Positions 8,495 to 31,483 are shown, counted from the first letter of the stretch. The stretch is DNA of 36,566 bases from an uncultured Solibacteraceae bacterium (GCA_964548865.1 CAZJTG010000005.1:1-36566), one strand, 5' to 3'. The notes: generated by a model not told the origin, from the sequence alone. Numbers and translations are program-made.

Positions 8495-10336
8495 TCAACC
8501 TTCCATCTTCACCGGTTTCACGAGGTGATGTTTCGCGACGTCCTGATAGGCCCTGGCGAGAGCGAGCAGTTCCATTTCGCCGAACGGCCGCGCGAAGAAC
8601 GTGACATTCGTCGGTGTGCCCGCCGCCGTGAATCCGTTCGGGACGTTCACGGCCGGATAGCACGCGAGATTTGCCATCGTTGAATGCCGCTGCGCGGGTC
8701 CGCCGCCACCGCCCGGCCCGCCTCGGCCACCGCCGGCGCGACCGGCGGCTGGATCGCCGCCGCGTGCCGTCGCGGCACCCGTCGCACCCGCAACGCCCGG
8801 CTCCGGTTCGCCGGCCCGTCCCCCGCGCCCTCCCGCCCCAGCGCCGGCGTTCGACGCGACGAGGTACACATCCACGTCCTTCGTCGCGGCCGCGAGCTCC
8901 GTCATCATCATCATGCGGAGGCGCTGCTGCTGCAGGTACTCGACGGCTGGCAGCAGCCTCGCCGTCGGCCGGTTGGCGTTACCCATGCGCGAGCCGGTGA
9001 GCTTGCCGGCGCGACGCATCTCGTCGAAGTACACGAACGACTCCACGCCCAGGCTGGCGACGTTGGTCTGCGAGTTCGGGATCTTCATCTCGATGAACTT
9101 CGAGATACCGAGATTGCGCAGCGTGTTCAGGAGGTTCTCCGCGTTCGTCTTCGCGTCGGCGTTCGTCAGTTCGTCGAACGACTCCTTGATGTAACCGACG
9201 CGCAGCTTGCGGATATCCAGCCGGGCGTCCCAGTTCCACGGGATGTCGGACACGCTCATGTCGCGGCCGTCGAGCTTCGAGATGGCCTGCATGACCAACG
9301 CGGCATCTTCGGCGTAGCGCACCATGGGACCAATGCGGTCCTGGGTCCACGACAGGGCCATGATGCCGTAACGTGACACGCGGCCGAACGTCGGCCTGAG
9401 CGATGCGATGCCGCAGCGCGCGGCGGGGCTGAGGATCGATCCGCTCGTCTCCGATCCGATCGCGAACGCCACGCAGCCGGCAGCGGTCGCCGACGATGAG
9501 CCGGCCGACGATCCGCTGGAGCCCTGCGCGGGATCCCAGGGGCTGTTCGTGCGGCCGCCGAACCACATGTCACCCGCGGCGAGCTCGCCGGTCGAGAGCT
9601 TCGCCACGAGCACCGCGCCGGCATCGCGCAACTGCTCGACGACGGACGCGTCGTAGTCGAACACCTGTCCTTTGAGCGCCGCGGTGCCCCAGGTCGTCGG
9701 ATAGCCCTTCACCGAGATGATGTCCTTCGCGCCCCATGGAATCCCGTGCAGCGGCCCCTTGTACCTGCCCGCCGCGATCTCGGTGTCCGCCTGCTTTGCC
9801 TGCGCCATCGCCAGGTCGTCGAGGAACGTGACCACGAAGTTCAGCTTCGGGTTGTACTTGTGGAGGCGGGCGAGATACATCCCGGTGAGCTCGCGCGACG
9901 TGACCTGCCGCGTGCGCACGAGCTCCGCGAGATGCCGCACCGGCCAGAACGCGACGTCCTCGAGGTTCGAGGGCCGTCTGATCGAGGGAGCGACGCTCAT
10001 GCGGAACGGCAGCCGCGTCCGGTTGGGCTCGATGCCCGGCGCGAGCGCGCTGAAATGGAACGGCGGCGAGACGTCGAGCGGAATCGATATCTTCCGGACC
10101 TCTTCGAACCGCGTCAGGTTCTGATTCGCGCCGGCCACCATCGCCTGGATGTCGGCGTCCGGTACCTCGACGCCCTGCAGTTTCAGCGCTTCCTTGAGCA
10201 TCGCGGCGGTCACGCGCTGGGTGCCCTGATCCTGCATGCGCGCCCAGACGACACCGGGCACGAGCGTGGATCCCAGCCCGATGCTGGCGAAGTGGGTCAT
10301 GAACCGTCTGCGCGTGTCTTCAAGCGAATGCGGCAT
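8495..10336 (-). CDS. Tat-exported amidase-signature (GatA-family) amidase with Gly/Arg-rich insertion
   Basis: Tat leader DTRRRFMTHFASIGLGSTLVPGVVWA. AS-family motifs: GIPWGAKD, the Gly/Ser-rich signature GSSGSSAGSSSATAAG, and GSETSGSILSPA. A 53-aa G/R/A/P insert (~8693..8851) lies before the C-terminal NVPNGF block. Confidence 0.85.
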   Translation of the reverse strand: MPHSLEDTRRRFMTHFASIGLGSTLVPGVVWARMQDQGTQRVTAAMLKEALKLQGVEVPDADIQAMVAGANQNLTRFEEVRKISIPLDVSPPFHFSALAPGIEPNRTRLPFRMSVAPSIRRPSNLEDVAFWPVRHLAELVRTRQVTSRELTGMYLARLHKYNPKLNFVVTFLDDLAMAQAKQADTEIAAGRYKGPLHGIPWGAKDIISVKGYPTTWGTAALKGQVFDYDASVVEQLRDAGAVLVAKLSTGELAAGDMWFGGRTNSPWDPAQGSSGSSAGSSSATAAGCVAFAIGSETSGSILSPAARCGIASLRPTFGRVSRYGIMALSWTQDRIGPMVRYAEDAALVMQAISKLDGRDMSVSDIPWNWDARLDIRKLRVGYIKESFDELTNADAKTNAENLLNTLRNLGISKFIEMKIPNSQTNVASLGVESFVYFDEMRRAGKLTGSRMGNANRPTARLLPAVEYLQQQRLRMMMMTELAAATKDVDVYLVASNAGAGAGGRGGRAGEPEPGVAGATGAATARGGDPAAGRAGGGRGGPGGGGGPAQRHSTMANLACYPAVNVPNGFTAAGTPTNVTFFARPFGEMELLALARAYQDVAKHHLVKPVKMEG

Positions 10337-10379
10337 TGTGGGGACCTCGGTGGGCGAATTCTATCGCTGTCTTTTCCCT

Positions 10380-10482
10380 CAAACACACACGGAGATCGGT
10401 AAGGCAACATGGAGATCACCAAGGTCCCAAAAACCAAGCCTTGGTGGTCTTTCTTGTGCTTGGTGGTCTCTGTGTGTGTTTG
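10380..10482. repeat. ~103-nt nested-palindrome intergenic repeat element (copy A)
   Basis: Two forward units (CACACACGGAGATCGGTAAGG and GGAGATCACCAAGG) are followed by two reverse units (CCTTGGTGGTCT and CTTGGTGGTCTCTGTGTGTGTTTG). The 18-mer CAAACACACACGGAGATC is identical to copy B. Confidence 0.6.
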
Positions 10483-10490
10483 AAGCGGCC

Positions 10491-12488: not shown

Positions 12489-12530
12489 CAAAAACCTGAC
12501 TTTCGGGCGCTGGCAGAGAGAGCTTAGCCG

Positions 12531-12633
12531 CAAACACACACGGAGATCACCAAGGGACGGCGAGACCACAGAGCCATGGTTTTCAAGCCCAATCCTTGGT
12601 GATCTCCCTGTGTCTTAGTGGTCTCCGTGTGTG
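12531..12633. repeat. ~103-nt nested-palindrome intergenic repeat element (copy B)
   Basis: ACACACGGAGATCACCAAGG (12536..12555) pairs with CCTTGGTGATCTCCCTGTGT (12594..12613) at 19/20. The outer unit GTGGTCTCCGTGTGTG (12618..12633) is the reverse complement of CACACACGGAGACCAC. Confidence 0.6.
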
Positions 12634-12648
12634 CCTGGGACCGTGTCG

Positions 12649-13671
12649 CTACAGAATCTGCCGCGCGAGACGCTTGCGGAGTTCCCGCGTGTCATCCCCT
12701 CGGAGGTCCCGCAGGGCGTACGTGACGAGCGGCCGGATCATCTTCTTGCGCCAGACCAGCTCGTAGTCCGTGTTGTCCATCGGCTTGCCGAGCGTGTAGG
12801 CGGCGTCCGCGGCCGCGGTGATCAGCTCGTCGGTCAGCCGCTGGCCGCGAAGGAGTTCCGCGGCGGCGGGGATACCCAGCGGCCGCGATGCCACGGCGCC
12901 GAGGACGATGCGGATGTCTTCGACCGTGCCGCCGGGATCGATGCGGCCGGCGACAGCCACCGAGGCGACCGGGAAGTCGAACGAACCGCGGCGGCGAAGC
13001 TTCCAGTACGCGCTGCGCCGGCCGTGGATGTCCGGGACCGTGACGTCCACAAGAATCTCGTCGGGCCGGCGCGTGAGGTAGTGCATGCCGTCGTTGGCGT
13101 ACAGGTCACTGACGGCGATGGTGCGCTCACCGCGCGCGGACATCAGCCGCACGCGCGCGTCGAGTGCCTGCAGCATCGGCGCAGTATCGGTGGACGACAC
13201 CGCGAGGCACTTGGGGCTCGACGTCGCCACCCAGCACGTGTCGCCATCCTTCTTCATGCAGAAGCTGATGGCCTGCCGCCATTCGTAGCTCTGGTCGTAG
13301 TACGTGCAGCGCGTGTCGAGGCAGAGGTTGCCGCCCACCGTGGCCATGTTGCGCAGATGCGGTGTCGCGACTTGCGCGGCGGCCTGCCAGAGACCAGAGC
13401 AGACCGCGCGGAGTTCCTCGTTGCGGACAATCGACGTCAGCGTCGCCATCGCGCCGACGCGAAGGTCACCGTTCAGCGACGCGCCGTGGAGTTCCTGCAC
13501 GCCCCGCAGGCCGACAACGACTTTCGGCACCTGCTGGCGGCGCTTCATGTTGGGCAGCAGGTCGGTTCCACCGGCGAGCAGCATCGTCTCGGCCGGCGCC
13601 TTGGCGAGGTGATCCGCGGCCTCGGCAAGGGAGCGGGCGCCGATGTAGTTGAAGCGGGGAAGCCTTATCAC
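12649..13671 (-). CDS. FAD-binding (medium/beta) subunit of a xanthine-dehydrogenase-family molybdoenzyme, with Cys-rich insertion (HcrB-like)
   Basis: GTG start in a GTGA overlap with the stop of the upstream subunit. FAD motifs LLAGGTDLLP and ATVGGNL are followed by the insertion C-LDTR-C-X15-C-X7-C-X8-C. The CO-dehydrogenase flavoprotein C-terminal region is present. Only the last 340 codons of track ORF 12649..15138 are real. Confidence 0.8.
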   Translation of the reverse strand: MIRLPRFNYIGARSLAEAADHLAKAPAETMLLAGGTDLLPNMKRRQQVPKVVVGLRGVQELHGASLNGDLRVGAMATLTSIVRNEELRAVCSGLWQAAAQVATPHLRNMATVGGNLCLDTRCTYYDQSYEWRQAISFCMKKDGDTCWVATSSPKCLAVSSTDTAPMLQALDARVRLMSARGERTIAVSDLYANDGMHYLTRRPDEILVDVTVPDIHGRRSAYWKLRRRGSFDFPVASVAVAGRIDPGGTVEDIRIVLGAVASRPLGIPAAAELLRGQRLTDELITAAADAAYTLGKPMDNTDYELVWRKKMIRPLVTYALRDLRGDDTRELRKRLARQIL

Positions 13672-16154
13672 TTGGCACCCATCTGCGACTTCAACGCCGC
13701 CTTGGCCTCGACGCCGGCGTCCACTGCGCGGCCCGTCGGCGCCTGAGGCGGATTCGACGCGCGGCCGTCGCCACCCTCCCACGGCGGCGTGACTCTCACC
13801 GGATCCGGCCACGGCACGGCGGGGAATTCTCCCGGGCCGACGCGCGCCACTTTGCCAGACGCCTTGAGCGCGAGGGCCCTCAGGATCTTCTCGGGCGTGA
13901 CCGGCACTTCGTCGATGCGCACGCCGACGGCATCGTAGACGGCGTTTGCGACCGCCGGCATGATTGGCAGGAGCGGGCCCTGTCCGACTTCCTTCGCGCC
14001 AAACGGTCCGGCCGGATCTGGATGCTCGACGAGTTCCGTAAAAATCTCCGGCATGTCGAGGCTCGTCGGACTCTTGTATTCGAGGATCGACGGGAACTTG
14101 TGCACGAGCGCATGCGACAGGCGCGCGGGAAGACGCCGGAACGCCTGCTCCTCCATGAGGGCTTCGCCGAGGCCCATGTAGACGCTGCCCTCGACCTGCC
14201 CGCGCGCGAGCGTCGGATTGATCGCGCGGCCGATGTCGTGGGCGATCCAGACGCGCGGCACGACGATCCAGCCGGTGTCTGGATCGACCTCCACTTCGAC
14301 GACGGCCGCGGTGTACGAGTACGTTGGCGAGGGACCCACGCCGCCGCCCTTGAATCGCGCCGGCGATTTTGGCGGCGTGTACGAGCCGGTCGTGCCGATC
14401 GATCCGAATTTCGCCTCGGCCACGCAGACAGCTTCCTGAAACGTCATGCCCTTCGACGGATCGGACGCGTCGAACACGCGGCGATCGGCCAGCACGACGT
14501 TCTCCTCTGGAATCCTCAGGCGTTCGGCGACGGACTTGGCGATGAGATCGCGGGCGCGTTCGGCGGCCTGAATCGCCGCGTTGCCCATCATCAGCGTCAC
14601 GCGGCTCGAGTACGAGCCGAGATCGACCGGTGTCAGATCGGTGTCGCCGGTGACGGCTCTCACGTCGATCGGTGGAATTCCGAGGACCTCCGCCACGCAT
14701 GCCACCAGGACGTCGTCCGATCCCTGTCCGATCTCGGTGGCACCGCAGAATGCCGTGACGCCGCCGCTGCGATCCAGTTTGAGGTGCACCGCCGAGTGCG
14801 GCAGATCGTTCCAGTTGATCGGGAGACCGGCGCCGGAGAGGTACGAGGAACAGGCAAGCCCGAAGCCGCGACCGTAGGGCAGCTTGCCGTGCTTGTCCCG
14901 CCAGCCGGAACTGGCGACGACCTTCGTGATGCACTCGGCGAGACCGATCGTTCCGACACGCAGATAGTTGGCGGTCAGTGAATCCGGTGGCGCGACGATG
15001 TTGAGGCGGAGATCGGCGGGGTCGATCGACAGGGCGTGCGCGATCTTGTCGAGCTGGACCTCCTGTCCAAAGCGCGCCTGCGGCGTGCCGTGGCCACGCT
15101 TGGGCCCGCACGGTGGCTTGTTCGTGAACACGCGGCAACCCCGAAAGCGGTACCGCGGAATCTCATACGTCACCGTCTGGAGCGCGCCGGTATAGAACGT
15201 GCTGGCCGCGCCGTACGAGCCGTACGAGCCGCCGTCGAGCAGGGTCTGCAGATCGACGCCGGTGATGCGGCCGTCGTTCGTGACGCCCGTGCGGAAGCGC
15301 ATCAGCACGGGATGTCGGCCGCGATGGCAGTAGAAGACTTCCTCGCGGGTGAGGCAGAACTTCACGGGCCGGTCGAGCATCAGCGCGGCCTTCGAGGCCA
15401 CGACCTCGTGGTTGAACGGATCGCTCTTGCCGCCGAACCCGCCGCCGTTCGGTGTCGCGACCACGCGGATATGAGCGGCGGGCATGGCGAGCGCCTTCGC
15501 GAGCGCGCGATGCACGTAGTGCGGCGTCTGCGTGGACGAGTACAGGACGAGCTTGCCGTCCGGATCTTTCAGGGCGACGCAGGCATGCTGCTCGAGCGGG
15601 AGGTGCGTGTTGCCCTCGAAGAAGAACGTGTCGTCGAACACGCGGTCGGCGCCGGCGATCGCTTCTTCGATGTCGCCGAACTCGAGTGCGACGACCTTGT
15701 GGATGTTACCCACGTCGCCGTAGTCGTGAATACGCGGTTCGGGCCGCGCGAGGCTCTCCTCGGGCGTGGCGAACGTCGGCAGCACCTCGTACTCGACGCG
15801 GATGTGTTCGAGCGCGTCGTTGGCGGTGGCTTCGTCGGCCGCGATGACGGCGGCCACAGGATCTCCGACAAAACGAACCACATCCAGGCACAGCGCGTGC
15901 TCGTCGTGGCTGACCGGCAGAATGCCGTAGGGAATCGGCAGCGCCGAGCCTGTGAGCACCAGGTGCACACCCGGCTGCGCCTCGACCTTCGACGTATCGA
16001 TGTTCAGGATGCGCGCGTGCGGATGCGGCGAGCGGAGCAGCTTGCCGTGCAGCATGCGCGGAAACACGAGGTCATCCGCGAACTTCGTCTGGCCGGTGAC
16101 CTTTGCGCGACCGTCGACGCGGCGGCGGGGTGAGCCGATGACGCGCATGGTCAT
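13668..16154 (-). CDS. Molybdopterin-binding (large/alpha) subunit of a xanthine-dehydrogenase/aldehyde-oxidase-family enzyme (HcrA-like)
   Basis: N-terminal block RVIGSPRRRVDGRAKVTGQTKFADD...HGKLLRSPHPHARI, then GGGFGGK, EIGQG and GAKEVGQGPL motifs. The ATG at 16154 forms an ATGA overlap with the 2Fe-2S subunit stop. Confidence 0.85.
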   Translation of the reverse strand: MTMRVIGSPRRRVDGRAKVTGQTKFADDLVFPRMLHGKLLRSPHPHARILNIDTSKVEAQPGVHLVLTGSALPIPYGILPVSHDEHALCLDVVRFVGDPVAAVIAADEATANDALEHIRVEYEVLPTFATPEESLARPEPRIHDYGDVGNIHKVVALEFGDIEEAIAGADRVFDDTFFFEGNTHLPLEQHACVALKDPDGKLVLYSSTQTPHYVHRALAKALAMPAAHIRVVATPNGGGFGGKSDPFNHEVVASKAALMLDRPVKFCLTREEVFYCHRGRHPVLMRFRTGVTNDGRITGVDLQTLLDGGSYGSYGAASTFYTGALQTVTYEIPRYRFRGCRVFTNKPPCGPKRGHGTPQARFGQEVQLDKIAHALSIDPADLRLNIVAPPDSLTANYLRVGTIGLAECITKVVASSGWRDKHGKLPYGRGFGLACSSYLSGAGLPINWNDLPHSAVHLKLDRSGGVTAFCGATEIGQGSDDVLVACVAEVLGIPPIDVRAVTGDTDLTPVDLGSYSSRVTLMMGNAAIQAAERARDLIAKSVAERLRIPEENVVLADRRVFDASDPSKGMTFQEAVCVAEAKFGSIGTTGSYTPPKSPARFKGGGVGPSPTYSYTAAVVEVEVDPDTGWIVVPRVWIAHDIGRAINPTLARGQVEGSVYMGLGEALMEEQAFRRLPARLSHALVHKFPSILEYKSPTSLDMPEIFTELVEHPDPAGPFGAKEVGQGPLLPIMPAVANAVYDAVGVRIDEVPVTPEKILRALALKASGKVARVGPGEFPAVPWPDPVRVTPPWEGGDGRASNPPQAPTGRAVDAGVEAKAALKSQMGAK

Positions 16155-16708: not shown

Positions 16709-16796
16709 CTACGCCGCGCGATAGGAGTCGCGCTCTCGGATGCTAGCACCAGTTGCCTTGCAATTCCCTCGGCCGGCAAAGGAAGATCGGCGGACG

Positions 16797-19139
16797 ATGG
16801 TGAAACATGTGCTTCGAAGGGTGAGTGTCCCGCTCGTGGCCTGCGCCACGCTCCTGCCGATCGAGATCGGTGCAGGCCGCGAATGGCGCGACCCGGCGCA
16901 GGCGTCACCGATTCCGCAGGATCTCAGGCCCCTGCTCGCGGCGCCCGTCAGTGAAATGCGCATGGTCGTCACCTGGTACACCGCGGATCGAAATACATTG
17001 ATCGGCCACTTCGCGGGGGCGGGACGAGGAGGGCGCGGCGGACAGGGCGGAGGTCGCGGGGGAAGGGCCGGAGGTGCCGGAGCGCAGGTCACCGGAGGCG
17101 GTGCTGCGGGAGCCGCTGCTGCTGCGCCCGTGGCGCAAGTCGTTGGTCCGGTACCGATCTCGCCGGCGCGAATCGCGCGTCTGAAGCGCTATGACCTCGA
17201 CTGGCATTCCGCGCTCAGGAAAATCGATCCGGCCAGGCTCACGGCCCTGGCCAGACCTGATCTCGCCGCGCTCAACTCCATCATCGAGAACAACCTGAAG
17301 CAGGTCGAGGCCGACGCGCTGACGCTGGCCCAGATCGCGCCAGCCGTTCCCTTCGCCTCGAAGATCGTGGACATGGCCGAAGCGCGCATTCGGGTCGATC
17401 CGATGGACGCGCAGAAGGCCGCGGAAACGACGACGGCGATCGTCAGGGAACTCCAGGTCATCCGCACCGCGCTGGAGTCCGGCGCGGCGAACGCGCCGAG
17501 GCTCGATCGGATGACGGCGCTGCGCGCGGCTGAGGCGGTCACGCAGCTGCGGTCGATCGCGGCCGAGTGGTTCGGCTTCTACAACGGCTACGACCCGATG
17601 TTCACGTGGTGGATGGGGATGCCATACCGGCAGATGGACGCGGGGCTGCAGGAGTACGCGGCCGTGCTGCGCGACAAGGTGGCCGCGGCGGCCGTGGACG
17701 GCGCCGCGACGCCCGCGGCGATCGCCCCTGTGACGCCGGCGCCTGCACCCAGGTACTCCTCGGTGCCGGATCTCCAGGACATCCTCCGACTGCCGCAGGA
17801 CGAGATGCGGGACATCGTCGCGCGTTTCAACAGCGGACGTCCCGGACAGGGAGGACGCGGAGGACGGGCCGGAGGCGCCGGTGCGGAGACCTCGGAGGCG
17901 GCTGGCGCCGCGCCGGCCGTCGCCGGCGACGCCTACTACGGTGCCTGGCTCGAGTCGCTGAAGTCCCTCGACTTCGACACGCTCACGCGCAACGCGCAAG
18001 TGGACTACCTCTACATCAAGTGGACGGCCGAGACGGAGATCGCCCGGGCGGCCGAGGTGATTCCGCCCGGCCCGCCGCGCAAGGCCGACACCTCGGACAT
18101 CAAGGGGCAGCCGCGCGGACGGGCCGGCCTCATCCGCGAGCTGGCCGACAACATGATTCCGTACACGCCGGAGCAGCTGAAGGCGCTCGCGACGCGGGAG
18201 TTCGCCTGGTGCGTTGAGGAGATGAAGAAGGCCTCGCGCGCGCTCGGCTTCGGCGATGACTGGAAGAAGGCGATCGAGCATACGAAGCGGACCGCCGTCG
18301 CGCCCGGCGAGCAGCCCCGCATGATCATGGGCCTGATCGAGAAGGCCGTCGCGTACTTGCGCGCGAACGATCTGATCACGGTGCCGTCCGTCGCCGCCGA
18401 GACGGTGCACATGAACATGATGTCGCCGCAGGCGCAGCTGACGTCGCCGTTCTTCCTTGGCGGCGTCGGCGGCATCATCGTGTCGTATCCGACGGATACG
18501 ATGGAGTTCGACGCGCGCATGCAGAGCATGCGGGGCAACAACCCGGGCTTCTCGAATGCGACCGCGCATCACGAGACGATTCCCGGGCACCTGCTCACGG
18601 GCTACCTCGGCCAGCGGTACGCCGGGTATCGCGCGAGCCTCCGCGGCGGCGGGCCGTTCTACGGCGAAGGCTGGCCGCTCTACTGGGAGCTGACGATGTA
18701 CGAACTCGGGTTCAACAAGACACCCGAGGAGAAGATCGGCGCCCTCTTCTGGCGCATGCACCGCTGCGCGCGCATTGTGTTTTCGCTGAACTTCCATTTA
18801 GGCTTGTGGTCTCCGCAGGACAGCGTGGACTTTCTCGTGAATGAGGTCGGTCACGAGCGCGACAACGCGACCGCCGAGGTGCGCCGGTCGTTCGAGTCCG
18901 CGCAGTATGCGAATCAGCCGCTGTACCAGGCGGCGTATCTGCTCGGCGGACTGCAGTTCCGCGGCCTTCGCAAGCAGCTCGTGGACTCGAAGGTCATGAC
19001 CAACAAGCAGTTCCACGACGAGATCCTGCGGCAGGGCAACATGCCGATCGCGTTGATCCGCCTGGCCGTGACGCGCGAGAAGCTCACGCGCGACATGAAC
19101 ATCAACTGGAAGTTCTACGGGGAGCTGCCGGAGAAGTAG
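16797..19139 (+). CDS. DUF885-family protein (metallopeptidase-like HExxPGH), secreted, with two Gly/Arg-rich inserts
   Basis: Signal peptide MVKHVLRRVSVPLVACATLL. C-terminal region has ATAHHETIPGHLL and EGWPLYWE blocks characteristic of DUF885. Inserts lie at ~17013..17135 and ~17835..17925. Confidence 0.75.
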   Translation: MVKHVLRRVSVPLVACATLLPIEIGAGREWRDPAQASPIPQDLRPLLAAPVSEMRMVVTWYTADRNTLIGHFAGAGRGGRGGQGGGRGGRAGGAGAQVTGGGAAGAAAAAPVAQVVGPVPISPARIARLKRYDLDWHSALRKIDPARLTALARPDLAALNSIIENNLKQVEADALTLAQIAPAVPFASKIVDMAEARIRVDPMDAQKAAETTTAIVRELQVIRTALESGAANAPRLDRMTALRAAEAVTQLRSIAAEWFGFYNGYDPMFTWWMGMPYRQMDAGLQEYAAVLRDKVAAAAVDGAATPAAIAPVTPAPAPRYSSVPDLQDILRLPQDEMRDIVARFNSGRPGQGGRGGRAGGAGAETSEAAGAAPAVAGDAYYGAWLESLKSLDFDTLTRNAQVDYLYIKWTAETEIARAAEVIPPGPPRKADTSDIKGQPRGRAGLIRELADNMIPYTPEQLKALATREFAWCVEEMKKASRALGFGDDWKKAIEHTKRTAVAPGEQPRMIMGLIEKAVAYLRANDLITVPSVAAETVHMNMMSPQAQLTSPFFLGGVGGIIVSYPTDTMEFDARMQSMRGNNPGFSNATAHHETIPGHLLTGYLGQRYAGYRASLRGGGPFYGEGWPLYWELTMYELGFNKTPEEKIGALFWRMHRCARIVFSLNFHLGLWSPQDSVDFLVNEVGHERDNATAEVRRSFESAQYANQPLYQAAYLLGGLQFRGLRKQLVDSKVMTNKQFHDEILRQGNMPIALIRLAVTREKLTRDMNINWKFYGELPEK

Positions 19140-19220
19140 CGGGGGCTCGCCCGCGTTGCCTCGCGTTGTCCACGACGATAGACTGCGGCTCCACCATCCT
19201 AATCAAGCGAGGCCAGCACT

Positions 19221-20004: not shown

Positions 20005-20008
20005 TCCC

Positions 20009-22675: not shown

Positions 22676-22746
22676 GCCGCCTGGCGGGGCGGCTGCCTGG
22701 CCGGATCGACCTGCCCGAAAGTCGGGTATTCTCTGCTGCATCAGCC

Positions 22747-23616: not shown

Positions 23617-23677
23617 GACAAACGACAAGAACGGCGCCGCCGGCCGGAACGACGCCAACGAGATTCTCGGAGCAGGC

Positions 23678-25468
23678 ATGCGACGAATTGCAATCGCGGT
23701 GATGTGTGCGTGTGCGCTGGCGCCAGCCCTGGCGCAGCGGCCCGCTGACGCCCCGAAGACGGCGCCCTCCGGCAAGCCTCCGGACACGGTCTTCATCGAG
23801 GAACTCACCTGGGCCGAAGTGCGGGATCTCGTCAAGGACGGCTGGACGACCGCCATCATCGGCACCGCGGGCACGGAACAGAAGGGCCCGCACATGGTGG
23901 ACGGCGAGCACAAGTTCGTCATGGAGTACGCCGCCGACAAGATCGCCCGCCGCGTCGGCAAGACGCTCGTCGCACCGGTCATTACTTACGTGCCGGAGGG
24001 CAGCTGGGTGAATCCTGGCGGGCACATGGGCAAGCCCGGGACGATCACGCTGCCCGACGATCGATTTCTCGAACTCCTTCTGGCGGCCGGCCGCAGCCTG
24101 AAATCAGGCGGCTTCACGACGATCCTGTTCCTCGGCGAATCGGGCGGCAATCGCACCGGGATGCGCAACGCCGCGACGCAGCTGACTGAGCTGTGGAAGG
24201 GTGAGGCGAAGGCGTTCTGGATCGACGATTACTACACGAAGAGCCACGCCGATCAGAACGCGCACATCACGAAGACGATGGGGATTCCGGCGAGCGAGAT
24301 CGGCGGGCACGCCAACCTGCTCGACACGTCGGAGCTGTTGTTCGTCAACCCGAAGCACGTGCGCAAGAACAAGATCGCGCCGGGCGGCGGGTATCCGAAC
24401 AGCGGAGTCAGCGGAGATCCGACGAGATCCTCCGCGGCGCTCGGCAAGGTGTTTCTCCAGATCAAGATCGACAACGCCGTGGCGCAGATCGGGGCGCTCA
24501 CGTCAGGTACGTCGGGTACGGCGAGTGCCGCGAGCGCGGGCGAGGCCAGGCGCGGCGGCGCCGCCGCCGCGGGTGGTCGAGGTGGGCAGGCCGGAGGACG
24601 CGGGCAAGGGGGAGGGCGTGGCGTACAGCCGGGAGGACGCGGAGCAGAGAGCACGGCGGCATCCGCCGTCCCGAGACCCACAATGGAGACGGCGCCCGCG
24701 GGCATTTCGCCGACGAACCCGCCGGACACGGTGTTCATCGACGAGCTCACGTGGGAAGAGACGCGCGATCGGATGAAAGCGGGCTGGACGACCGCCGTCA
24801 TTCCGACCGGCGGCACGGAGAAGAACGGGTACCACATGGCGCTCGGCAAGCACAACGCCATCGTCACCCACGCGGCCAACCTGATGGCGCGGCGCCTGAG
24901 GAACACGCTTGTGGCGCCCGTGATTCAGTACGTGCCCGAGGGCAATCCCGAGCGTCAGAATCCAGGCGCGATCTCCCTGCCCTCGCCGGCCTACGACCTG
25001 CTGCTCGACGCCGCGGCGCGCAGCCTGCAGGCGCACGGCTTCAAAGAGATCATCTTCATCGGCGACAGCGGCGGCAATCAGGCCGGCATGCGGAACGTGG
25101 CGAACGTTCTGAACGAAGAGTGGAAGGGCCGCGACGTCAGGGTCTTCGCGCTGACCGACTACTACGAACAGGGCCGGCTGCACTACCGCGCGTGGCTCGA
25201 GGCCGCGTTCGGCTACGACGACACGATCGTCGGATCGCACGCGGGGATCAGCGACACGTCGCAGCTCCTGCACGTGAAGCCGTCCATGGTGCGGAAGAAC
25301 CAGGTCAAGCCGTGGGGCGGCCCGACGGACTCCGGGGTCTCAGGCGATCCGACGAAGGCCACGGCCGAAATCGGCCGCATGGGCATCGAGTTCAAGATCA
25401 ACGCCGCGCTCGCGCAGTACCGGGCGCTGAAGAATCCCAGGGGCGGACGGGGCGGCGGCGGACAGTAG
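23678..25468 (+). CDS. Secreted tandem-duplicated creatininase-fold (creatinine amidohydrolase family) protein
   Basis: Signal peptide MRRIAIAVMCACALAPALAQ. Two homologous modules start PPDTVFIEELTWAEVRD...GTAGTEQKGPHM...LVAPVITYVPEG...FLGESGGN and PPDTVFIDELTWEETRD...PTGGTEKNGYHM...LVAPVIQYVPEG...FIGDSGGN. They are joined by a Gly/Arg-rich linker. Confidence 0.7.
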   Translation: MRRIAIAVMCACALAPALAQRPADAPKTAPSGKPPDTVFIEELTWAEVRDLVKDGWTTAIIGTAGTEQKGPHMVDGEHKFVMEYAADKIARRVGKTLVAPVITYVPEGSWVNPGGHMGKPGTITLPDDRFLELLLAAGRSLKSGGFTTILFLGESGGNRTGMRNAATQLTELWKGEAKAFWIDDYYTKSHADQNAHITKTMGIPASEIGGHANLLDTSELLFVNPKHVRKNKIAPGGGYPNSGVSGDPTRSSAALGKVFLQIKIDNAVAQIGALTSGTSGTASAASAGEARRGGAAAAGGRGGQAGGRGQGGGRGVQPGGRGAESTAASAVPRPTMETAPAGISPTNPPDTVFIDELTWEETRDRMKAGWTTAVIPTGGTEKNGYHMALGKHNAIVTHAANLMARRLRNTLVAPVIQYVPEGNPERQNPGAISLPSPAYDLLLDAAARSLQAHGFKEIIFIGDSGGNQAGMRNVANVLNEEWKGRDVRVFALTDYYEQGRLHYRAWLEAAFGYDDTIVGSHAGISDTSQLLHVKPSMVRKNQVKPWGGPTDSGVSGDPTKATAEIGRMGIEFKINAALAQYRALKNPRGGRGGGGQ

Positions 25469-25492
25469 TGTCCGGTGTCCAGGTGTCGGCGT

Positions 25493-27028: not shown

Positions 27029-27978
27029 GGCAGGAGTGCCTGAACGCTCGGCGGCATGGGCTGCTGGCGATTCGTGATGCCGATGCTGGCCATGCTCCAA
27101 ATCAGGAAGATGTTCCGGGGGGAGACGTTCAGGAGGGTCTTCGTCGCCTGCTGAGTCGCCTTCGAGAAATGATCCTGCTGCTGCGAGTGCACGCTGAGCG
27201 TCACGGCGACGCCCGTCACGTACGTCGTACCCAGCACAACCTCGGTCTGATACGTGAAGCAGGGCGAGTTCCCGGGGTTCGGGATCACGTTGTTCAGGAT
27301 GACCATCGATGCCGTCTTTACCGGCTTCGAGGCCGCATTCCACGGCATGACGTTCCGGTAGAGGTGCCCGGCCGCCGTGTCGCACGTGTATTCGACGTAC
27401 AGCATCTGGCCGTCATCGTTGATGTCGCCGTAGAGCTTCAACACCGATCCAGTCGATCCGTTCGCCATTGACGGCGGCACGACACCGGAGGGAAACCCCC
27501 CGAGAATCATCAGCGGCTCGCCCGCGTAGTGCGCCAGGCCGAAAACGCCACTGAACGACGTACCTGTCAGCGCCGTGATGGCCACCGTTTCGGTCTGGTC
27601 TCCAGCGCCAAGCACGACCTGCGCGCCGACGAAGAGTCCTGTCGTGGTGTTCACCGAGATCGTACCGGCGCCCTTCAGCACCGACCCGGTCGTCGTGATC
27701 GCGCCCGGCAGGGCGACGCGGCCCGCCTGACCGATCTCCTGCTGCATCAACTCCGTGGCGCCGCGGACCGACCCGTGCATCTCGGCGCGGTTGCCGACGA
27801 CTTTGCTGAGAATGACGGTCTGGTTCAGCCCGTTGGTCGCGGCAGTGAAGAGGATCAGCAGCACGGACACGGCAATGAGCGCCTCGACCAGTGAGAAGCC
27901 GGACTGGGACGAGCCGGGTGCGGAGTGCCGTGTGCCAGGTGCCGGGTGCGGTGTACGCGGTGCCGAGTGTGGATGCAT
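27025..27978 (-). CDS. Prepilin-type N-terminal cleavage/methylation protein, PilW-like minor pilin
   Basis: G|FSLVEALIAVSVLLILF class-III signal with Glu at +5. 27-aa leader. Position in the fimT-pilV-pilW-pilX gene order. Confidence 0.7.
   Translation of the reverse strand: MHPHSAPRTPHPAPGTRHSAPGSSQSGFSLVEALIAVSVLLILFTAATNGLNQTVILSKVVGNRAEMHGSVRGATELMQQEIGQAGRVALPGAITTTGSVLKGAGTISVNTTTGLFVGAQVVLGAGDQTETVAITALTGTSFSGVFGLAHYAGEPLMILGGFPSGVVPPSMANGSTGSVLKLYGDINDDGQMLYVEYTCDTAAGHLYRNVMPWNAASKPVKTASMVILNNVIPNPGNSPCFTYQTEVVLGTTYVTGVAVTLSVHSQQQDHFSKATQQATKTLLNVSPRNIFLIWSMASIGITNRQQPMPPSVQALLP
27912..27974 (-). repeat. Degenerate heptanucleotide tandem tract, 9 units (TGCCGNG on the + strand) inside the PilW-like leader-coding region
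   Basis: AGCCGGG TGCGGAG TGCCGTG TGCCAGG TGCCGGG TGCGGTG TACGCGG TGCCGAG TGTGGAT. It translates on the minus strand to the 7-aa periodic HSAPRTP HPAPGTR HSAPGSS. Confidence 0.7.
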
Positions 27979-27990
27979 GACGACTTTCTC

Positions 27991-28566
27991 TCAGAACGGG
28001 AAGCTCTTGAGCGAGACCAGCGTAGCGGTCGGCCTCTGTCGCCTGCCGATACTGCGCGCGACGGTTGCCGTCACCCGAACTTCCTTCAACGTTGCCGAGA
28101 TTGCGGTCACCTGCCAGACGCGCTGGTAGAACCACCCCGCCGGCGGGGTTGCCGAGTTACTCACGAGCAGGTTGCCCCCGGCGTCAAGGTAGTCGGCGTA
28201 CCCGACCACCGGCGCCGCAGGGTTCGCGCTTCCGCCGGCTGCGATGCCCGTGCCGCCGATGGCGGTTGCGGGAAAGACTCGCGTGTCCGACGAGTCGTCG
28301 CCGAACGACAGCACCAGGAGCTGCTCCATCTTGTCCTGCGCGTACTCGGCCGTGCGCGCGGCAAGGTGGCCCTGGTTTTCCGACTGCGTCAGCGAAATCG
28401 CGGCCATCGCGAGCAGGCCGGATGCGAGCGTGCCCATGATGACCACGGCCACGATCACTTCCACCAGCGTGGATCCTGAATCGGTACGGGGTGCCTGGTG
28501 CCGGGTGCCGAGTACCGGGCGCCGGCTGTCGGGTGCCTGCAGGCTACGGTCAGGGGAGGTGCTCAT
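27991..28566 (-). CDS. Prepilin-type protein, PilV-like minor pilin
   Basis: G|STLVEVIVAVVIMGTLASGLL with Glu at +5 but Ser rather than Phe at +1. PilV-type continuation (AISLTQSENQG...AEYAQDKMEQL). 31-aa leader. ATG at 28566. Confidence 0.65.
   Translation of the reverse strand: MSTSPDRSLQAPDSRRPVLGTRHQAPRTDSGSTLVEVIVAVVIMGTLASGLLAMAAISLTQSENQGHLAARTAEYAQDKMEQLLVLSFGDDSSDTRVFPATAIGGTGIAAGGSANPAAPVVGYADYLDAGGNLLVSNSATPPAGWFYQRVWQVTAISATLKEVRVTATVARSIGRRQRPTATLVSLKSFPF
28484..28539 (-). repeat. Degenerate heptanucleotide tandem tract, 8 units (GTGCCGG on the + strand) inside the PilV-like leader-coding region
   Basis: GTACGGG GTGCCTG GTGCCGG GTGCCGA GTACCGG GCGCCGG CTGTCGG GTGCCTG. On the coding strand it shares the core GCACCCGGCACC[A/T]GGCAC with the tract at 27912..27974. 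Confidence 0.7.
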
Positions 28567-28580
28567 CGTCACATGACCTC

Positions 28581-29210: not shown

Positions 29211-29256
29211 GTGATCCAGGTCGCACCGGGAACCCCGGGCGCGACGCGCAGGAATG

Positions 29257-29272
29257 AGCAAGGACCGTACCT
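29257..29272 (-). promoter_or_regulatory. Candidate sigma54 (-24/-12) promoter for the minor-pilin operon
   Basis: The minus strand reads AGGTACGGTCCTTGCT, against the consensus TGGCACG-N4-TTGCW. The GG and TTGC elements have exact spacing, with one core mismatch (C to T). It lies ~47 nt upstream of the fimT-like ATG. Confidence 0.4.
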
Positions 29273-29375
29273 CAGGGGGCAAGGCCAGCTCGCCCGTAAC
29301 CTCCTCTATTTGCTTGGCTTAGCGGGACTCCAGGTCATCCACCAAAACTGTGGGCCTGGCGTGGGTGGGTACTTC

Positions 29376-29391
29376 TGTAACGGCCGTTACA
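29376..29391. promoter_or_regulatory. 16-bp perfect palindrome TGTAACGGCCGTTACA, candidate activator (UAS) site
   Basis: Perfect dyad centred ~113 bp upstream of the -24 GG of the sigma54-like element, the usual distance range for bEBP binding sites. Confidence 0.3.
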
Positions 29392-29417
29392 ACAACGGGC
29401 CGTCGTTCGCCTGAGCC

Positions 29418-29450
29418 AAAAAAAGGGGCGGCCCGCTTGCTGGCCGCCCC
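29418..29450 (-). terminator. Rho-independent terminator downstream of the ankyrin gene
   Basis: The minus strand reads GGGGCGGCC-agcaagcg-GGCCGCCCC followed by TTTTTTT. This gives a 9-bp GC stem, an 8-nt loop and a 7-U tail, starting 33 nt after the stop at 29483. Confidence 0.75.
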
Positions 29451-29482
29451 GGATCGAGCCACGCTCGCGCCCTGAACGGCGC

Positions 29483-31483
29483 CTACGGCGCGCAACTGGC
29501 GCAACGGTTGTTATTGGTCGCTCCAAGCTTCACGAGCAGATCGCGCGCTTCAGGGAACGGTGAGATTCGCGAGACCGGCCCGTTGGCCATGTCGGCGGTC
29601 GACTGGCCGCGCCGGCTGACGGCTTTCACGTCCGCGCCCTTCGACACGAGGTAATTGATCATCTCGACGTCTCCACGCGCGGCCGCGTGGTGAAGCGGCG
29701 TGTAGCCGCCGTCGTCGCGTGAGTTGACGTCGATGCCGATCTCCTCGATTAGGTATTTCACCGCGGCCAGCCACGCCTCGGGGGCGTGACGATGGGCATT
29801 GCCGGCGAAGCCTTCGCCGTACTCGGCGCCGGCGGCGGCATGCAGCGGATTGACGCCTGGTCCGCCCGCCGGAACCGGCGGCAGGCCCGACGGATCGACC
29901 CGCGGCCCTGCCGGAGCCGCCGCGGGTGTGCCGCCGTCTGGGCCGCCCGCGCCGCCACGCCCTCCGGCTGCTCCGGCACCGAAGCCACGGCCACCTGCCG
30001 CACCTCCGCGCCCGGCGCCGCTGGTCATCGTGGGGATATTGGGATCGGCGCCGTATTTGACGAGCAGGCGCATCGCGTCGACGTCAGTGCCGTATGCGGC
30101 GCGCCAGAACGCCGTGGAGCCTGTCACGTTCGCCAGGCCGCAGTTCGCGTTGCCGCAGTCGCTGTAGACCATGTACCAGGGATGGCCCTTCACCCGCACG
30201 TCGGGATCCGCGCCGGCTTCGAGCAGCGCCTTCATGACGTCGAGGTATGTGGCCTTCTGGTAGTCCATTTCCTGCGGCTGGGGGAATCGCGTGCGCGGCT
30301 GCCACCGCGTGTTGACGGCGGCCCAGAGCGGCGTGATCCCGTAGCCATCGCCGGCGAGGTTGACCTTGGCGCCTTTCTCGATGAACTGCATGGCGATGTC
30401 GAACTGTCCGTTGACGAGCGCGACGAGGAGCGGCGTGTTGCCGTCCGCCGACTTCCGGTTGATGTCCGCGCCGGCGTCGAGGAGCAGCGTGACGGCCTGT
30501 GCGTGTCCGTCGCGCGCGGCGAAGTGGAGCGGCGTCATGCCGCCCTTGGCCGTGCCGGACACCGCGGGGCCATCGACGCTCAGAGGATCCTGCACCACCA
30601 GTCCGGTGCCGTCGGCCGCAGGCGTGCCGCCGCGCCCGGCGAATTGTCCGCGTCCACCGCCGGCCGCGCCCGCAGGGGAGGCGGCAGCCGCCACGGCGGG
30701 ATCCGGAGCGCCGCCGCGCCCGACCGCAGGGGCCGCGCCCGGGGGAGGCGGCAGCTTGCCCGTCGCGTAGAACTCGCGGGTCGCCGCGACGGCGGCCTGC
30801 TGGGCCGCGGCCGTCGGCGTTTGTCCGGGCGGCGTTGCCGCCGCGATGATCTGCCGGCGCAGCGTCGCGCCCTGACGGTCGATGGCCTGCTGCTGCGAGA
30901 TGTTGATCGGCGTGGACGCCAGGTCGACCGCCGCGCCCCGGGCGATCAGCGCCTTCATGGCGGCGACGTGTCCGCCGGTCACGGCGAAAACGAGCGGCGA
31001 CTGGCCGTTGACCGTGTCGCGCGCATTCACGTCCGCGCCGCCGTCGACGAGCGCGGTCACGGCCGCGGCGTTGCCGCCGCCCGCCGCCAGGTGAATCGCC
31101 GAGGCGCCGCTGGCGGTCGTGGTGTTCACGTCCGCGCCCGCCTTGACGAGTGCGGTCACGACATCGGCGGCGCCATTCCTGGCCGCGAGGTGGAGCGGCG
31201 TGTACTGGCCGAGCCGAGTCTCGGCGGCGAGGTTGGCGCCGGCCCGAATCAACACGTCGGCCATCGTCGCGTCGCCGCGCTCCGCCGCCCAGTGCAGCGG
31301 TGTCATGCCGTCGGCGTGCGGCGCGCTCGCGTCGGCGCCCTGCTTCACGAGGCTGCGAACCGAAGCGACGTCACCCTTCCTCGCGGCGTCGGCGACAGGC
31401 GTCGCGGCCTGCTCTGTGAACGCGACGGTGACCGACGCCAGCACGAACGTCGCGGCCAGACCTAACCCAAGTGCACGTGTCAT
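29483..31483 (-). CDS. Secreted ankyrin-repeat protein with Gly/Arg-rich inserts
   Basis: Signal peptide MTRALGLGLAATFVLASVTVAFT. Many ANK units (G.TPLH.AA..G....V..Ll..GAdvN). Two low-complexity inserts lie at ~29860..30030 and ~30610..30760. An alternative ATG at 31516 would overlap the DUF1552 stop by 8 nt; 31483 has the better AGGGGA Shine-Dalgarno. Confidence 0.8.
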   Translation of the reverse strand: MTRALGLGLAATFVLASVTVAFTEQAATPVADAARKGDVASVRSLVKQGADASAPHADGMTPLHWAAERGDATMADVLIRAGANLAAETRLGQYTPLHLAARNGAADVVTALVKAGADVNTTTASGASAIHLAAGGGNAAAVTALVDGGADVNARDTVNGQSPLVFAVTGGHVAAMKALIARGAAVDLASTPINISQQQAIDRQGATLRRQIIAAATPPGQTPTAAAQQAAVAATREFYATGKLPPPPGAAPAVGRGGAPDPAVAAAASPAGAAGGGRGQFAGRGGTPAADGTGLVVQDPLSVDGPAVSGTAKGGMTPLHFAARDGHAQAVTLLLDAGADINRKSADGNTPLLVALVNGQFDIAMQFIEKGAKVNLAGDGYGITPLWAAVNTRWQPRTRFPQPQEMDYQKATYLDVMKALLEAGADPDVRVKGHPWYMVYSDCGNANCGLANVTGSTAFWRAAYGTDVDAMRLLVKYGADPNIPTMTSGAGRGGAAGGRGFGAGAAGGRGGAGGPDGGTPAAAPAGPRVDPSGLPPVPAGGPGVNPLHAAAGAEYGEGFAGNAHRHAPEAWLAAVKYLIEEIGIDVNSRDDGGYTPLHHAAARGDVEMINYLVSKGADVKAVSRRGQSTADMANGPVSRISPFPEARDLLVKLGATNNNRCASCAP

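Follow-up and report, generated by a model that had tools for sequence, protein, structure and literature searches.

Gly/Arg-rich, RGG-like segments in exported proteins of Vicinamibacterales-like Acidobacteriota and their possible role as tethers or spacers

RGG/RG motifs and glycine-arginine-rich (GAR) domains are familiar from eukaryotic proteins such as nucleolin, fibrillarin, FUS and the hnRNPs, and formal patterns for them were reportedly defined by Thandapani et al. in 2013. Exported proteins have linkers of other kinds, Pro/Thr/Ser-rich in secreted glycoside hydrolases and Pro-rich in the periplasmic spacer of TonB, whilst Rickettsia palindromic elements are repeat elements inserted in frame into coding genes. 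In prokaryotes, a survey of >1500 proteomes, which also discusses RGG/RG motifs, found Arg generally under-represented in low-complexity regions, linked Arg/Gly regions to RNA binding and processing, and listed TonB among the proteins bearing low-complexity regions (PMC6821194). The modules described here resemble the Arg/Gly regions of bacterial RNA- and DNA-binding proteins in combining Arg with Gly at a fixed place across orthologues; unlike them, they have no nucleic-acid-binding host and belong, in 13 of 14 host families, to exported proteins. RGG-type sequence is otherwise known mainly from RNA-binding proteins within cells, and no published description of such modules in exported proteins was found in the literature. 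The lineage is that of Vicinamibacterales-like Acidobacteriota (soil; Vicinamibacterales and relatives), and the window is the whole 36,566-nucleotide stretch of DNA that was analysed.

Seven modules in four exported proteins

The sequence-only reading had claimed seven modules with a shared core in four proteins, all with N-terminal export signals. Translation of the four ORFs bore out every peptide and position, each in a coding frame, and Sec or Tat signals were confirmed for all four hosts in the window and among orthologues; the segments therefore end up outside the cytoplasm.

The first host is a Tat-exported amidase-signature enzyme at 8495..10336 (-) (Pfam Amidase, E = 4e-78), whose AF2 model has a mean pLDDT of 87.7 and matches GatA and peptide amidase best in Foldseek. 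Its signal reads TRRRFMxHFAGIGLGSTLVPGVxWA, the TRRRF motif and hydrophobic region being kept in full-length orthologues. The RG-rich insert (8693..8854 (-), aa 495-548) is flanked by VYLVASN and PAQRHSTMANLACYP, and pLDDT falls below 50 only at aa 498-542. Of 120 orthologues, 98% have an RG-rich insert here, whose length over the scored columns has its median at 65 aa and reaches 83 aa at most.

The second host, a Sec-exported DUF885 protein at 16797..19139 (+) (Pfam DUF885, E = 7e-44), has its longest ORF at 16740-19139(+) and its likely start at M20 (position 16797), from which the Sec signal begins; signal peptides are clear among its orthologues. Mean pLDDT in the AF2 model is 80.5, dropping below 50 nowhere but in the two modules and at the termini. 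Module 1 (17010..17144 (+), ORF aa 91-135) runs FAGAGRGGRGGQGGGRGGRAGGAGAQ... and then into an Ala/Gly stretch; its model residues 77-114 (ORF aa 96-133) fall under a pLDDT of 50, and it is kept as RG-rich in 98% of 121 sequences. Module 2 (17832..17925 (+), ORF aa 365-391; SGRPGQGGRGGRAGGAGAE...) has pLDDT below 50 at model residues 352-372 and is kept in 96% of 121 sequences, being present even at loci with 56-62% GC.

The third host is a Sec-exported, tandem double creatininase-fold protein at 23678..25468 (+), with two stretches matching Pfam Creatininase. Its longest ORF begins at 23507, and the true start is M58 at 23678, where the Sec signal begins; the N-termini of 120/120 orthologues follow M[KR]..hydrophobic..AQRPA. 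The inter-domain linker (24505..24700 (+)) has its RG core RGGAAAAGGRGGQAGGRGQGGGRGVQPGGRGA at 24551-24646 (aa 349-380). At least two RG triplets occur in the linkers of 97% of 121 sequences, 111 of which are distinct, over a scored-column length of 23-62 aa. The C-terminal tail KNPRGGRGGGGQ (25430..25465 (+)) is of RG type in 53% of orthologues, the others terminating at ..LKK(S/Q), and no transmembrane segment follows it.

The fourth host is a Sec-exported ankyrin-repeat protein at 29483..31516 (-) (Pfam Ank and related families), whose signal peptide is kept in the orthologues of L012, L014, L019, L032 and L057. Module A (30617..30727 (-), RG core 30626-30664; ..VGRGGAPDP..AGGGRGQFAGRGGTP..) separates blocks of ankyrin repeats, and in 5/5 aligned orthologues its position is taken by an RG-rich segment whose sequence differs. 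Module B, SGAGRGGAAGGRGFGAGAAGGRGGAGGPDGG (29927..30022 (-), RG core 29954-30022), likewise has an RG-rich segment at its position in 5/5 aligned orthologues. Disorder had been among the possibilities raised in the sequence-only reading; in the AF2 models of the amidase and DUF885, whose folds are otherwise confident, no internal segment apart from the modules is predicted to be disordered.

Insertion, retention and spread

Modules had been expected to be lineage-specific insertions, and this holds for the amidase, DUF885 module 1 and the propeller paralogues (PQQ-like and NHL). At the insert position, a loop of ~6-12 aa is all that amidase homologues of 37-50% identity have, and the aligned gap there is 25 aa in GatA 4wj3 versus 57 aa in the window amidase; DUF885 module 1 is missing (..RFYHVLSANRFSRLKRF..) in L160 and L162, homologues at 46-48% identity; and the propeller paralogues have short loops where modules sit. 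Since these positions hold at most a short loop in distant homologues and paralogues, the modules are insertions. Only one paralogous subfamily each of the PQQ-like and NHL families bears a module, so that modules are dispensable for many folds.

Among the ~120 orthologues aligned for each of three hosts (amidase, DUF885, creatininase), place and G>A>P~R composition are held in 96-98% at the four internal positions, and RG character is retained down to 58% identity. The same positions hold 94-113 distinct sequences among 120-121, length and sequence turning over through in-frame indels and substitutions in almost every orthologue. In two inserts, sharply conserved borders enclose a free interior: VYLVASN before and PAQRHSTMANL after it in the amidase, ..NFAG before and PVPIS.ARLARLK after it in DUF885.

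The four hosts are real but understate a lineage-wide habit that touches >20 families, as 2.1 Mb of related DNA holds such modules in ~20 further unrelated families. These include a PQQ-like quinoprotein, an NHL propeller, an S9 peptidase, a TolB-amidohydrolase fusion, a Tat-type PLP aminotransferase, a sortilin/BNR protein, a PmbA/TldD pair, an amidohydrolase and an S10 peptidase, and in the distant amidase paralogues P0375 and P0461 the RG module is placed in another loop. Modules are far commoner in proteins with signal peptides: counted by family, with the anchor families and the window left out, 13/14 module-bearing families are exported versus 216/522 without modules (Fisher one-sided p = 1.1e-4, odds ratio 18), and each of two samples taken separately shows the bias (p = 0.010 and p = 0.009). 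Signal peptides were called by our own heuristic rather than SignalP, with 22/562 in an internal false-positive control, and the heuristic detected no signal in the PmbA/TldD-like host of L102. Cytoplasmic RNA-binding proteins of the classical kind are represented in the 2.1 Mb by one cold-shock-like protein only, so that restriction to exported proteins is a statement about this sample and not about whole proteomes.

Composition, DNA and possible roles

The modules consist mainly of G (~36%), A (~22%), P (~12%) and R (~11%); Lys, His, Cys and the aromatic and aliphatic residues are all but missing. Relative to the background of the hosts, position-defined loops contain 0.01x the His, 0.06x the Lys and 0.58x the Gln, the last being tolerated, and almost no Leu, Ile, Trp or Tyr. 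His is one transition away from CGC, the main Arg codon, yet is depleted ~100-fold. Spacing between arginines peaks at 3 and 4 (RGGR/RGGGR). Mean net charge is +2.6 per strict module, and Asp-Pro or Glu in many modules (RGGDPA, GERGG) lowers it. The folded parts of the hosts are no more acidic than those of other exported proteins, and nothing therefore points to charge balancing.

Chance or misannotation in a high-GC genome, where Gly, Ala, Arg and Pro codons are GC-rich and wrong frames can yield RG-rich pseudo-peptides, is scarcely credible as a source of the modules. Low-confidence ORFs in the sample do yield R/G/L-rich junk (for example L059 19354-21627), but the host genes score strongly for codon usage, and the modules sit in frame, flanked by conserved domains here and by conserved sequence in ~120 orthologues each. 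GRGG/GGRG words number 26 in the called genes of the window, ~15-fold above the 1.69 +/- 1.39 (maximum 10) of 2000 within-protein residue shuffles; the observed count was matched in 0/2000 shuffles for each host, and a six-frame scan concentrates the words in the coding frames of the four hosts, with few in non-coding frames. Orthologue comparisons and shuffle counts refute the artefact. Very improbable, too, is selection on a nucleic-acid-level element with the peptide as by-product, whether Shine-Dalgarno-like GGAGG pause sites, G-quadruplexes or a small mobile in-frame repeat of the Rickettsia palindromic kind. GGAGG is dense in modules (9.2 per kb versus 0.79 per kb elsewhere), yet it occurs in only 29-36% of them, below the 55% expected from module peptides with module codon usage, drawn independently, and so is if anything avoided. 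Short DNA matches between modules occur, and the likeness of the amidase and DUF885 cores noted in the sequence-only reading is real but short (<=24 nt at 92%; DUF885 modules 1 and 2 share 32 nt at 87.5%); it is confined to the stretch encoding the shared peptide GGRGGRAGG, reflects that peptide and is no evidence for a common origin. Orthologous modules are alike in composition and unlike in sequence, and this element is largely refuted by the GGAGG deficit, the short peptide-bound matches and the mixed codons.

A more serious alternative, if still somewhat unlikely, is functionless filler: replication slippage would create and lengthen GGN/CGN-rich tracts in loops, and these would persist only in exported proteins, as cytoplasmic RGG-type segments would bind RNA or ribosomes and be purged, whilst outside the cytoplasm selection would maintain only a hydrophilic, unstructured state. 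The known RNA affinity of RGG motifs would account for cytoplasmic exclusion (PMC6821194), and low-complexity regions generally accumulate in extracellular proteins (PMC8004648). Extreme turnover among orthologues, the restriction to one PQQ-like and one NHL subfamily, the tail kept in 53% and a weak leftover DNA periodicity (21 bp x 2.3 copies at 17028-17075) fit as well. Slippage as a sufficient cause, one of the origins originally proposed, is nevertheless disfavoured: tandem repeats in the modules score weakly in TRF; module codons are more mixed and lower in GC3 than the rest of the genes (GGT/GGA 0.23/0.16 versus 0.09/0.08 of Gly codons elsewhere, CGT 0.21 versus 0.09 for Arg), the opposite of fresh slippage tracts; and locus GC (62-72%) is uncorrelated with RG richness (Spearman rho -0.06), modules being still present at 56-58% GC. 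Against filler also stand the 96-98% retention of RG character, the His depletion, and the independent gain of one composition by >20 unrelated families, and by more than one loop within a single family, where a neutral process should give varied repeat types. Translocating positive charge should carry a cost, and neutrality is therefore not a default to be taken for granted. Mixed, lower-GC3 codons, independence from GC and the exclusion of His, Lys and hydrophobic residues therefore favour selection on the protein, which appears to uphold the composition, over GC pressure or recent slippage alone. In another reading, which we regard as unlikely, a lineage-specific periplasmic or extracellular factor would act on the exposed Arg-Gly segments, whether an Arg-specific protease that excises the spacer (leaving a two-chain amidase or separated creatininase domains), an arginine-modifying enzyme, or a receptor sorting proteins to a surface layer or vesicles. 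Sharp borders around variable interiors, exposure and lack of structure in the AF2 models, and strict preference for Arg over Lys all suit it, and spacer peptides are cut out after export in other exported amidohydrolases, such as penicillin acylase. However, no candidate protease, modifying enzyme or receptor adjoins the hosts, the very different structural contexts (propeller loops, helical-domain loops, tails) suit a generic physical role better, and known C-terminal sorting signals have a hydrophobic helix and a basic cluster that the C-terminal tail lacks.

Our best, still tentative, explanation is that the modules are genuine Gly/Arg-rich, RGG-like, intrinsically disordered segments, gained repeatedly and independently in surface loops, inter-domain linkers and C-terminal tails of Sec/Tat-exported proteins, which act after export as tethers or spacers. 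To judge by composition, they would be flexible and polycationic, and their guanidinium groups could attach to anionic polymers of the envelope or matrix (LPS and phospholipid phosphates, peptidoglycan, acidic exopolysaccharide, extracellular DNA, soil polyanions), so that periplasmic and secreted enzymes may stay soluble and cell-associated. The RGGR/RGGGR spacing and the strict use of Arg over Lys may parallel polyanion-binding eukaryotic RGG boxes. Counted against a tether are the creatininase tail's 53% retention, the single PQQ-like and NHL subfamilies, the Asp-Pro and Glu residues, the host folds of ordinary acidity and the L102 host without a signal.

Comparison with known systems

Like Rickettsia palindromic elements, the modules place a similar, surface-exposed peptide segment in many unrelated conserved proteins, but they have no conserved DNA element (matches <=32 nt, explained by the peptide) and orthologous copies differ wholly in sequence. 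With slippage repeats and simple-sequence contingency loci they share in-frame length variation in close relatives and GC-rich triplets (GGN, CGN); they differ in having no pure codon runs, diversified third positions, weak TRF scores, length changes that never switch frame and a composition common to unrelated genes. The likeness to eukaryotic RGG/GAR segments extends to the residue pair and its spacing, disorder, Arg rather than Lys and fast turnover under conserved composition; DUF885 module 1 and the creatininase tail even match the formal Tri-RGG and Di-RGG patterns, respectively, though several other window modules do not. In contrast to the eukaryotic segments, the modules are far richer in Ala and Pro, Phe/Tyr are essentially absent, and the hosts are bacterial hydrolases, oxidoreductases and repeat proteins with Sec/Tat signals, at whose location RNA, arginine methyltransferases and the SAM cofactor are not expected. 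Compared with the linkers of exported proteins, the modules are Gly/Arg/Ala-rich rather than Pro/Thr/Ser or Glu-Pro/Lys-Pro, and most lie within a domain (amidase loop, propeller loops, DUF885 helical domain), but they are equally disordered, hypervariable in length and closed to hydrophobic residues, and the creatininase module is a true inter-domain linker.

RG modules in four exported hosts and their orthologues

The window has a GC content of 65-70% and carries ~24 genes with the codon-position GC pattern typical of real coding sequence; the nearest database proteins bear the names Vicinamibacterales or Acidobacteriota, as do the 80 related genome loci themselves. Pfam matches include a PadR regulator adjoining a MacB/FtsX 'orphan' permease, DUF1552 and DUF1592 genes, a TonB-dependent receptor and a VWA protein of the acidobacterial type. 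Between the VWA and molybdopterin-dehydrogenase genes, ~1.1 kb (12570-13670) contains no confident gene (the ORF at 12631-13746 has no Pfam match) and opens with two tandem copies of CTTAGTGATCTCCCTGTGT, a 19-bp direct repeat at 12595-12632. Imperfect repeats of 7-nt period (GGCACCC-like on the coding strand; 27913-27969 and 28484-28537) occupy the 5' ends of two minus-strand pilin-like genes, where, if read in frame, they yield unusually long Pro/His/Arg-rich prepilin leaders, MHPHSAPRTPHPAPGTRHSAPGSSQSG followed by FSLVE and ..APDSRRPVLGTRHQAPRTDSG followed by STLVE.

Four window genes carry Gly/Arg-rich, RGG-like segments (RG modules), and every peptide quoted in the sequence-only reading is present in them. 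The hosts are a Tat-signal amidase (8495-10336, −; insert at 8693-8854), a DUF885 protein (16740/16797-19139, +; module 1 at 17010-17144, module 2 at 17832-17925), a protein with two creatininase folds in tandem (23507-25468 as the full ORF, +, with the real start at 23678, M58; linker at 24505-24700, tail at 25430-25465) and an ankyrin-repeat protein (29483-31516, −; module A at 30617-30727, module B at 29927-30022). As had been claimed, all four exhibit export signals, which are conserved among orthologues, and the motif is not a product of chance: GRGG/GGRG words occur 26 times in called genes against 1.7 expected from within-protein shuffles, the observed count was reached by none of 2000 shuffles for each of the four hosts, and in a six-frame scan the words cluster within the coding frames of the four host genes.

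Pfam and NCBIfam scans of the hosts returned matches on catalytic or repeat domains only, with no model spanning the modules. Of the 445 profile positions of Pfam Amidase, 1-296 are matched, and the C-terminal remainder is recovered only in comparison with PDB sequences, as a weak stretch of its own; the match stops at two thirds of the domain because the RG insert splits it. RG inserts can degrade automated domain annotation, which is a warning for annotation and structure pipelines. AlphaFold2 models built from family alignments had a mean pLDDT of 87.7 for the amidase, which matches amidase-signature structures, and 80.5 for DUF885, and their internal low-confidence segments coincide with the modules only (amidase aa 498-542; DUF885 model residues 77-114 and 352-372), with pLDDT of 32-38 along the amidase module and 29-37 along both DUF885 modules. 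The creatininase-fold protein (23678-25468, +) is a tandem duplication in which the residues leading into domain 2 (PRPTMETAPAGISPTNPPDTVFIDELTWEE) mirror those at the mature N terminus ahead of domain 1 (QRPADAPKTAPSGKPPDTVFIEELTWAE), and the RG linker therefore sits where the signal peptide of the second copy would have been.

Alignments of ~120 orthologues per host (creatininase 69-85% identity, amidase 67-100%, DUF885 58-76%) exhibited well-conserved flanks with a module at the same place in essentially every orthologue of the three families, while the modules themselves exist in 94-113 distinct versions among 120-121 sequences and are not alignable with one another. Two or more RG triplets occur in 98% of both the amidase loops and the copies of DUF885 module 1, in 97% of the creatininase linkers and in 96% of the copies of DUF885 module 2, and the RG tail at the creatininase C terminus persists in just 53% of orthologues; all five aligned ankyrin orthologues have an RG-rich segment at both module positions. 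In scored columns the creatininase linker spans 23-62 aa, and the amidase loop and DUF885 module 1 reach maxima of 83 and 53 aa, with medians of 65 and 32 aa, respectively. Many orthologues contain clean GRGGRGGRGG runs, spacing between arginines has maxima at 3 and 4 (RGGR, RGGGR), and strict modules carry a net charge of +1 to +7 (mean +2.6). Within the modules, conservation of sequence was seen for one element alone, AGPGGFNM(P)G, which directly precedes the RG run in many DUF885 orthologues (aligned to 17010-17144) and is missing from the window copy. The modules offer a tractable test case for the evolution of disordered regions under compositional rather than positional constraint.

The expectation that the modules are insertions, lacking from homologues in other lineages, was borne out by distant relatives with a short loop or none. 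Amidase homologues at 37-50% identity, many of them with Tat signals too, have a loop of 6-12 residues (..PSFGGTNLLLTNLTGHP..) against 57-85 in the window lineage, and GatA, a protein whose structure is known, has 25 residues in the aligned gap against 57 in the window amidase. DUF885 homologues at 46-48% identity lack module 1 entirely, and in PQQ-like and NHL beta-propellers one paralogous subfamily carries an RG insert of 25-35 residues where its sisters have a short turn. Two distant amidase paralogues on other soil contigs, P0375 and P0461, have their RG module in another loop, the one that follows ..VVVPTGF, and the gains are therefore independent. P0375 (locus L081, 10001-11836, +) bears a Tat signal and is the sole module bearer among 26 genes of a 70% GC forest soil contig with flagellar and chemotaxis genes; these two paralogues possibly represent independent gains also outside Vicinamibacterales. 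RG modules are disordered, lineage-specific, recurrently acquired and compositionally constrained Gly/Arg-rich insertions in exported proteins. Independent gains of this composition affect more than 20 families in a soil-dwelling bacterial order that is abundant and for the most part uncultured.

Export status of module-bearing families

Genes were called with a self-trained codon-usage score in two samples. One joined the window to 80 genome loci that have the creatininase as anchor (1.42 Mb altogether), and the other consisted of 80 metagenome loci with DUF885 as anchor (0.76 Mb). The proteins were grouped into families by clustering, and modules were marked by a strict composition rule. Export was called with a home-made, conservative signal-peptide heuristic, which gave 22 false positives among 562 proteins in an internal-position control, together with a Tat pattern, added since the strict heuristic under-calls Tat signals; a looser first heuristic was dropped because it over-called (62% positive). 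With the anchor families and the entire window left out, 13 of 14 module-bearing families were of exported type versus 216 of 522 others (odds ratio 18, Fisher one-sided p = 1.1e-4), a comparison that applies to neighbourhoods of exported enzymes, classical cytoplasmic RNA-binding proteins lying outside both samples. Each sample was significant separately (p = 0.010 and p = 0.009), and no convincing RG module was found among the ~280 confident signal-less proteins of the sample. Low-complexity regions in the sample show a mild export bias (1.95% vs 1.17% of residues), which is expected, whereas the RG type and its ~18-fold bias are not.

New hosts include a PQQ-like quinoprotein, an NHL propeller, an S9 peptidase, a TolB-propeller/amidohydrolase fusion, a Tat-type PLP aminotransferase, a sortilin/BNR protein, an amidohydrolase, an S10 carboxypeptidase and a PmbA/TldD pair. 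The pair, at locus L102 (19432-20856 and 20861-22192, +), consists of adjacent genes that both have long RG modules, one of them (GGGGR)n-like, with a Tat signal in the downstream gene only; the upstream, PmbA/TldD-like protein, which has no visible signal and adjoins this module-bearing paralogue, is the sole exception in the comparison and may be co-exported with its partner. Exported PLP enzymes seem common in this lineage: a class-V aminotransferase of the window (6587-7879, +) has a Tat-like signal at its start (MLTRRAFLNATGVAGATLAV), and a HisC/PtaA-like PLP aminotransferase at two related loci (L019, 15402-16691, −; L057, 19388-20620, −) has a Tat-like SVTRRELF followed directly by an RG module. 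The observation behind the sequence-only reading thus extends far beyond four hosts, and its interpretation is supported in part.

Mutational origin and possible roles

Slippage of GGN/CGN-rich DNA, offered earlier as one possible cause of the modules, is unlikely to suffice. Length polymorphism among close relatives is present, as slippage would give, but near-perfect tandem DNA repeats of one or a few codons are absent: the best TRF array within any module is 21 bp in 2.3 copies at 85% matches, and the rest score 30-44. Within modules, codon choice for Gly and Arg is more varied than elsewhere and lower in third-position GC (GGT 0.23 vs 0.09, GGA 0.16 vs 0.08, CGT 0.21 vs 0.09). This lower GC3 also speaks against GC pressure as a sufficient cause, as do the lack of correlation between RG richness of the creatininase linker and locus GC over 62-72% (rho = -0.06) and the persistence of DUF885 modules at loci of 56-58% GC. 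The likeness reported between amidase and DUF885 core DNA is real but short, covering 24-32 nt and only the codons of the shared peptide GGRGGRAGG; since the longest inter-module matches (24 nt at 92%, 32 nt at 87.5%) all lie over this peptide, a common DNA origin or RPE-like mobile element was rejected. A reading at the mRNA level, through Shine-Dalgarno-like pauses, was likewise set aside: GGAGG is enriched per kb, yet occurs in 29-36% of modules versus 55% expected from module peptides and codon usage. Nor was support found for modules that compensate the charge of acidic hosts: the folded parts of the hosts have the same net charge as those of other exported proteins.

Residue usage likewise argues against GC pressure or recent slippage as a sufficient cause. 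Relative to the background of their own hosts, loops defined by position and not by composition are enriched 4.5-fold in Gly and 1.7-fold in Arg, with His at 0.01-fold, Lys at 0.06-fold and Leu, Ile, Trp and Tyr near zero; Gln is kept at 0.58-fold, though it is His that lies one transition from the dominant Arg codon CGC. Our tentative reading, drawn from sequence features, is that the modules would be held by selection for a role outside the cytoplasm, perhaps as a polyanion-binding tether or spacer, with LPS, peptidoglycan, acidic EPS, eDNA and soil polyanions as candidate partners. A tether or spacer would fit because of the strict use of Arg, regular RGG spacing, flexibility and positive charge. 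The main rival, which we regard as somewhat unlikely, holds that the modules are tolerated filler, able to persist only in places that offer them no RNA as a ligand. A processing or recognition site, which the sharp conservation of the insert boundaries suggests, is an explanation we consider improbable.

Selective retention of this composition in loops and linkers of exported enzymes would point to an unrecognised physical strategy for proteins outside the cytoplasm, for instance in retention, solubility, desiccation tolerance or matrix association. A broader and rather speculative extension is that they act as a common address or adhesive by which this lineage organises its proteins outside the cytoplasm. 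By binding to a scaffold of anionic nature, such as acidic exopolysaccharide, LPS, eDNA or polyphosphate, the modules would keep exported enzymes together or at the cell, maybe as condensate-like assemblies in the periplasm or matrix, or they would be read by a dedicated protease or receptor; were this shared address real, it would represent an extracytoplasmic bacterial counterpart of RGG-driven assembly in eukaryotes. RG modules are also a simple marker, at the sequence level, of the proteins that this lineage exports.

Relationship to known Gly/Arg-rich and sorting sequences

Among prokaryotes, a survey of more than 1500 proteomes found Arg to be heavily under-represented in low-complexity regions, and tied Arg/Gly low-complexity regions to RNA-binding proteins (PMC6821194). 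In the full-text literature searched, where subscription journals are mostly outside coverage so that absence is not proof, no paper describes modules of RGG type in enzymes that bacteria export. C-terminal sorting signals (PEP-CTERM, GlyGly-CTERM, LPXTG and similar), in which a signature motif precedes a hydrophobic helix and a basic cluster at the very C terminus, are unlike the creatininase tail, ..LKNPRGGRGGGGQ*, which has no hydrophobic segment and whose orthologous counterparts are just as hydrophilic, or absent. Inter-domain linkers of secreted enzymes describe the creatininase linker, which lies between two Pfam Creatininase stretches, and plausibly the ankyrin modules, whereas the amidase and DUF885 modules and the propeller loops interrupt a single fold.

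In eukaryotic cells, disordered Arg-Gly segments are modules of RNA binding and phase separation. Searched by regular expression for the formal RGG/RG patterns (Tri-RGG, Di-RGG, Tri-RG or Di-RG, spacers of 0-4 residues), DUF885 module 1 matches Tri-RGG and the creatininase tail Di-RGG, and Di-RG is matched by both the creatininase linker and ankyrin module A; the other three modules, in the amidase, at position 2 of DUF885 and at position B of the ankyrin protein, fall outside the strict patterns. No PRMT-like gene was seen in the window, its sole methyltransferase (2898-3797) being a generic class I enzyme. Like RGG/RG motifs, the amidase and DUF885 modules lie in regions that AlphaFold2 models as disordered; hosts of RGG/RG motifs are nuclear or cytoplasmic nucleic-acid-binding or RNP proteins, whereas RG hosts are enzymes, propellers and an ankyrin protein with Sec/Tat signals. 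The eukaryotic RGG/RG motif is the nearest known thing, alike in composition, spacing and disorder and different in host type and compartment, and the RG modules extend disordered regions of RGG type to a compartment and a lineage that are both new for them.
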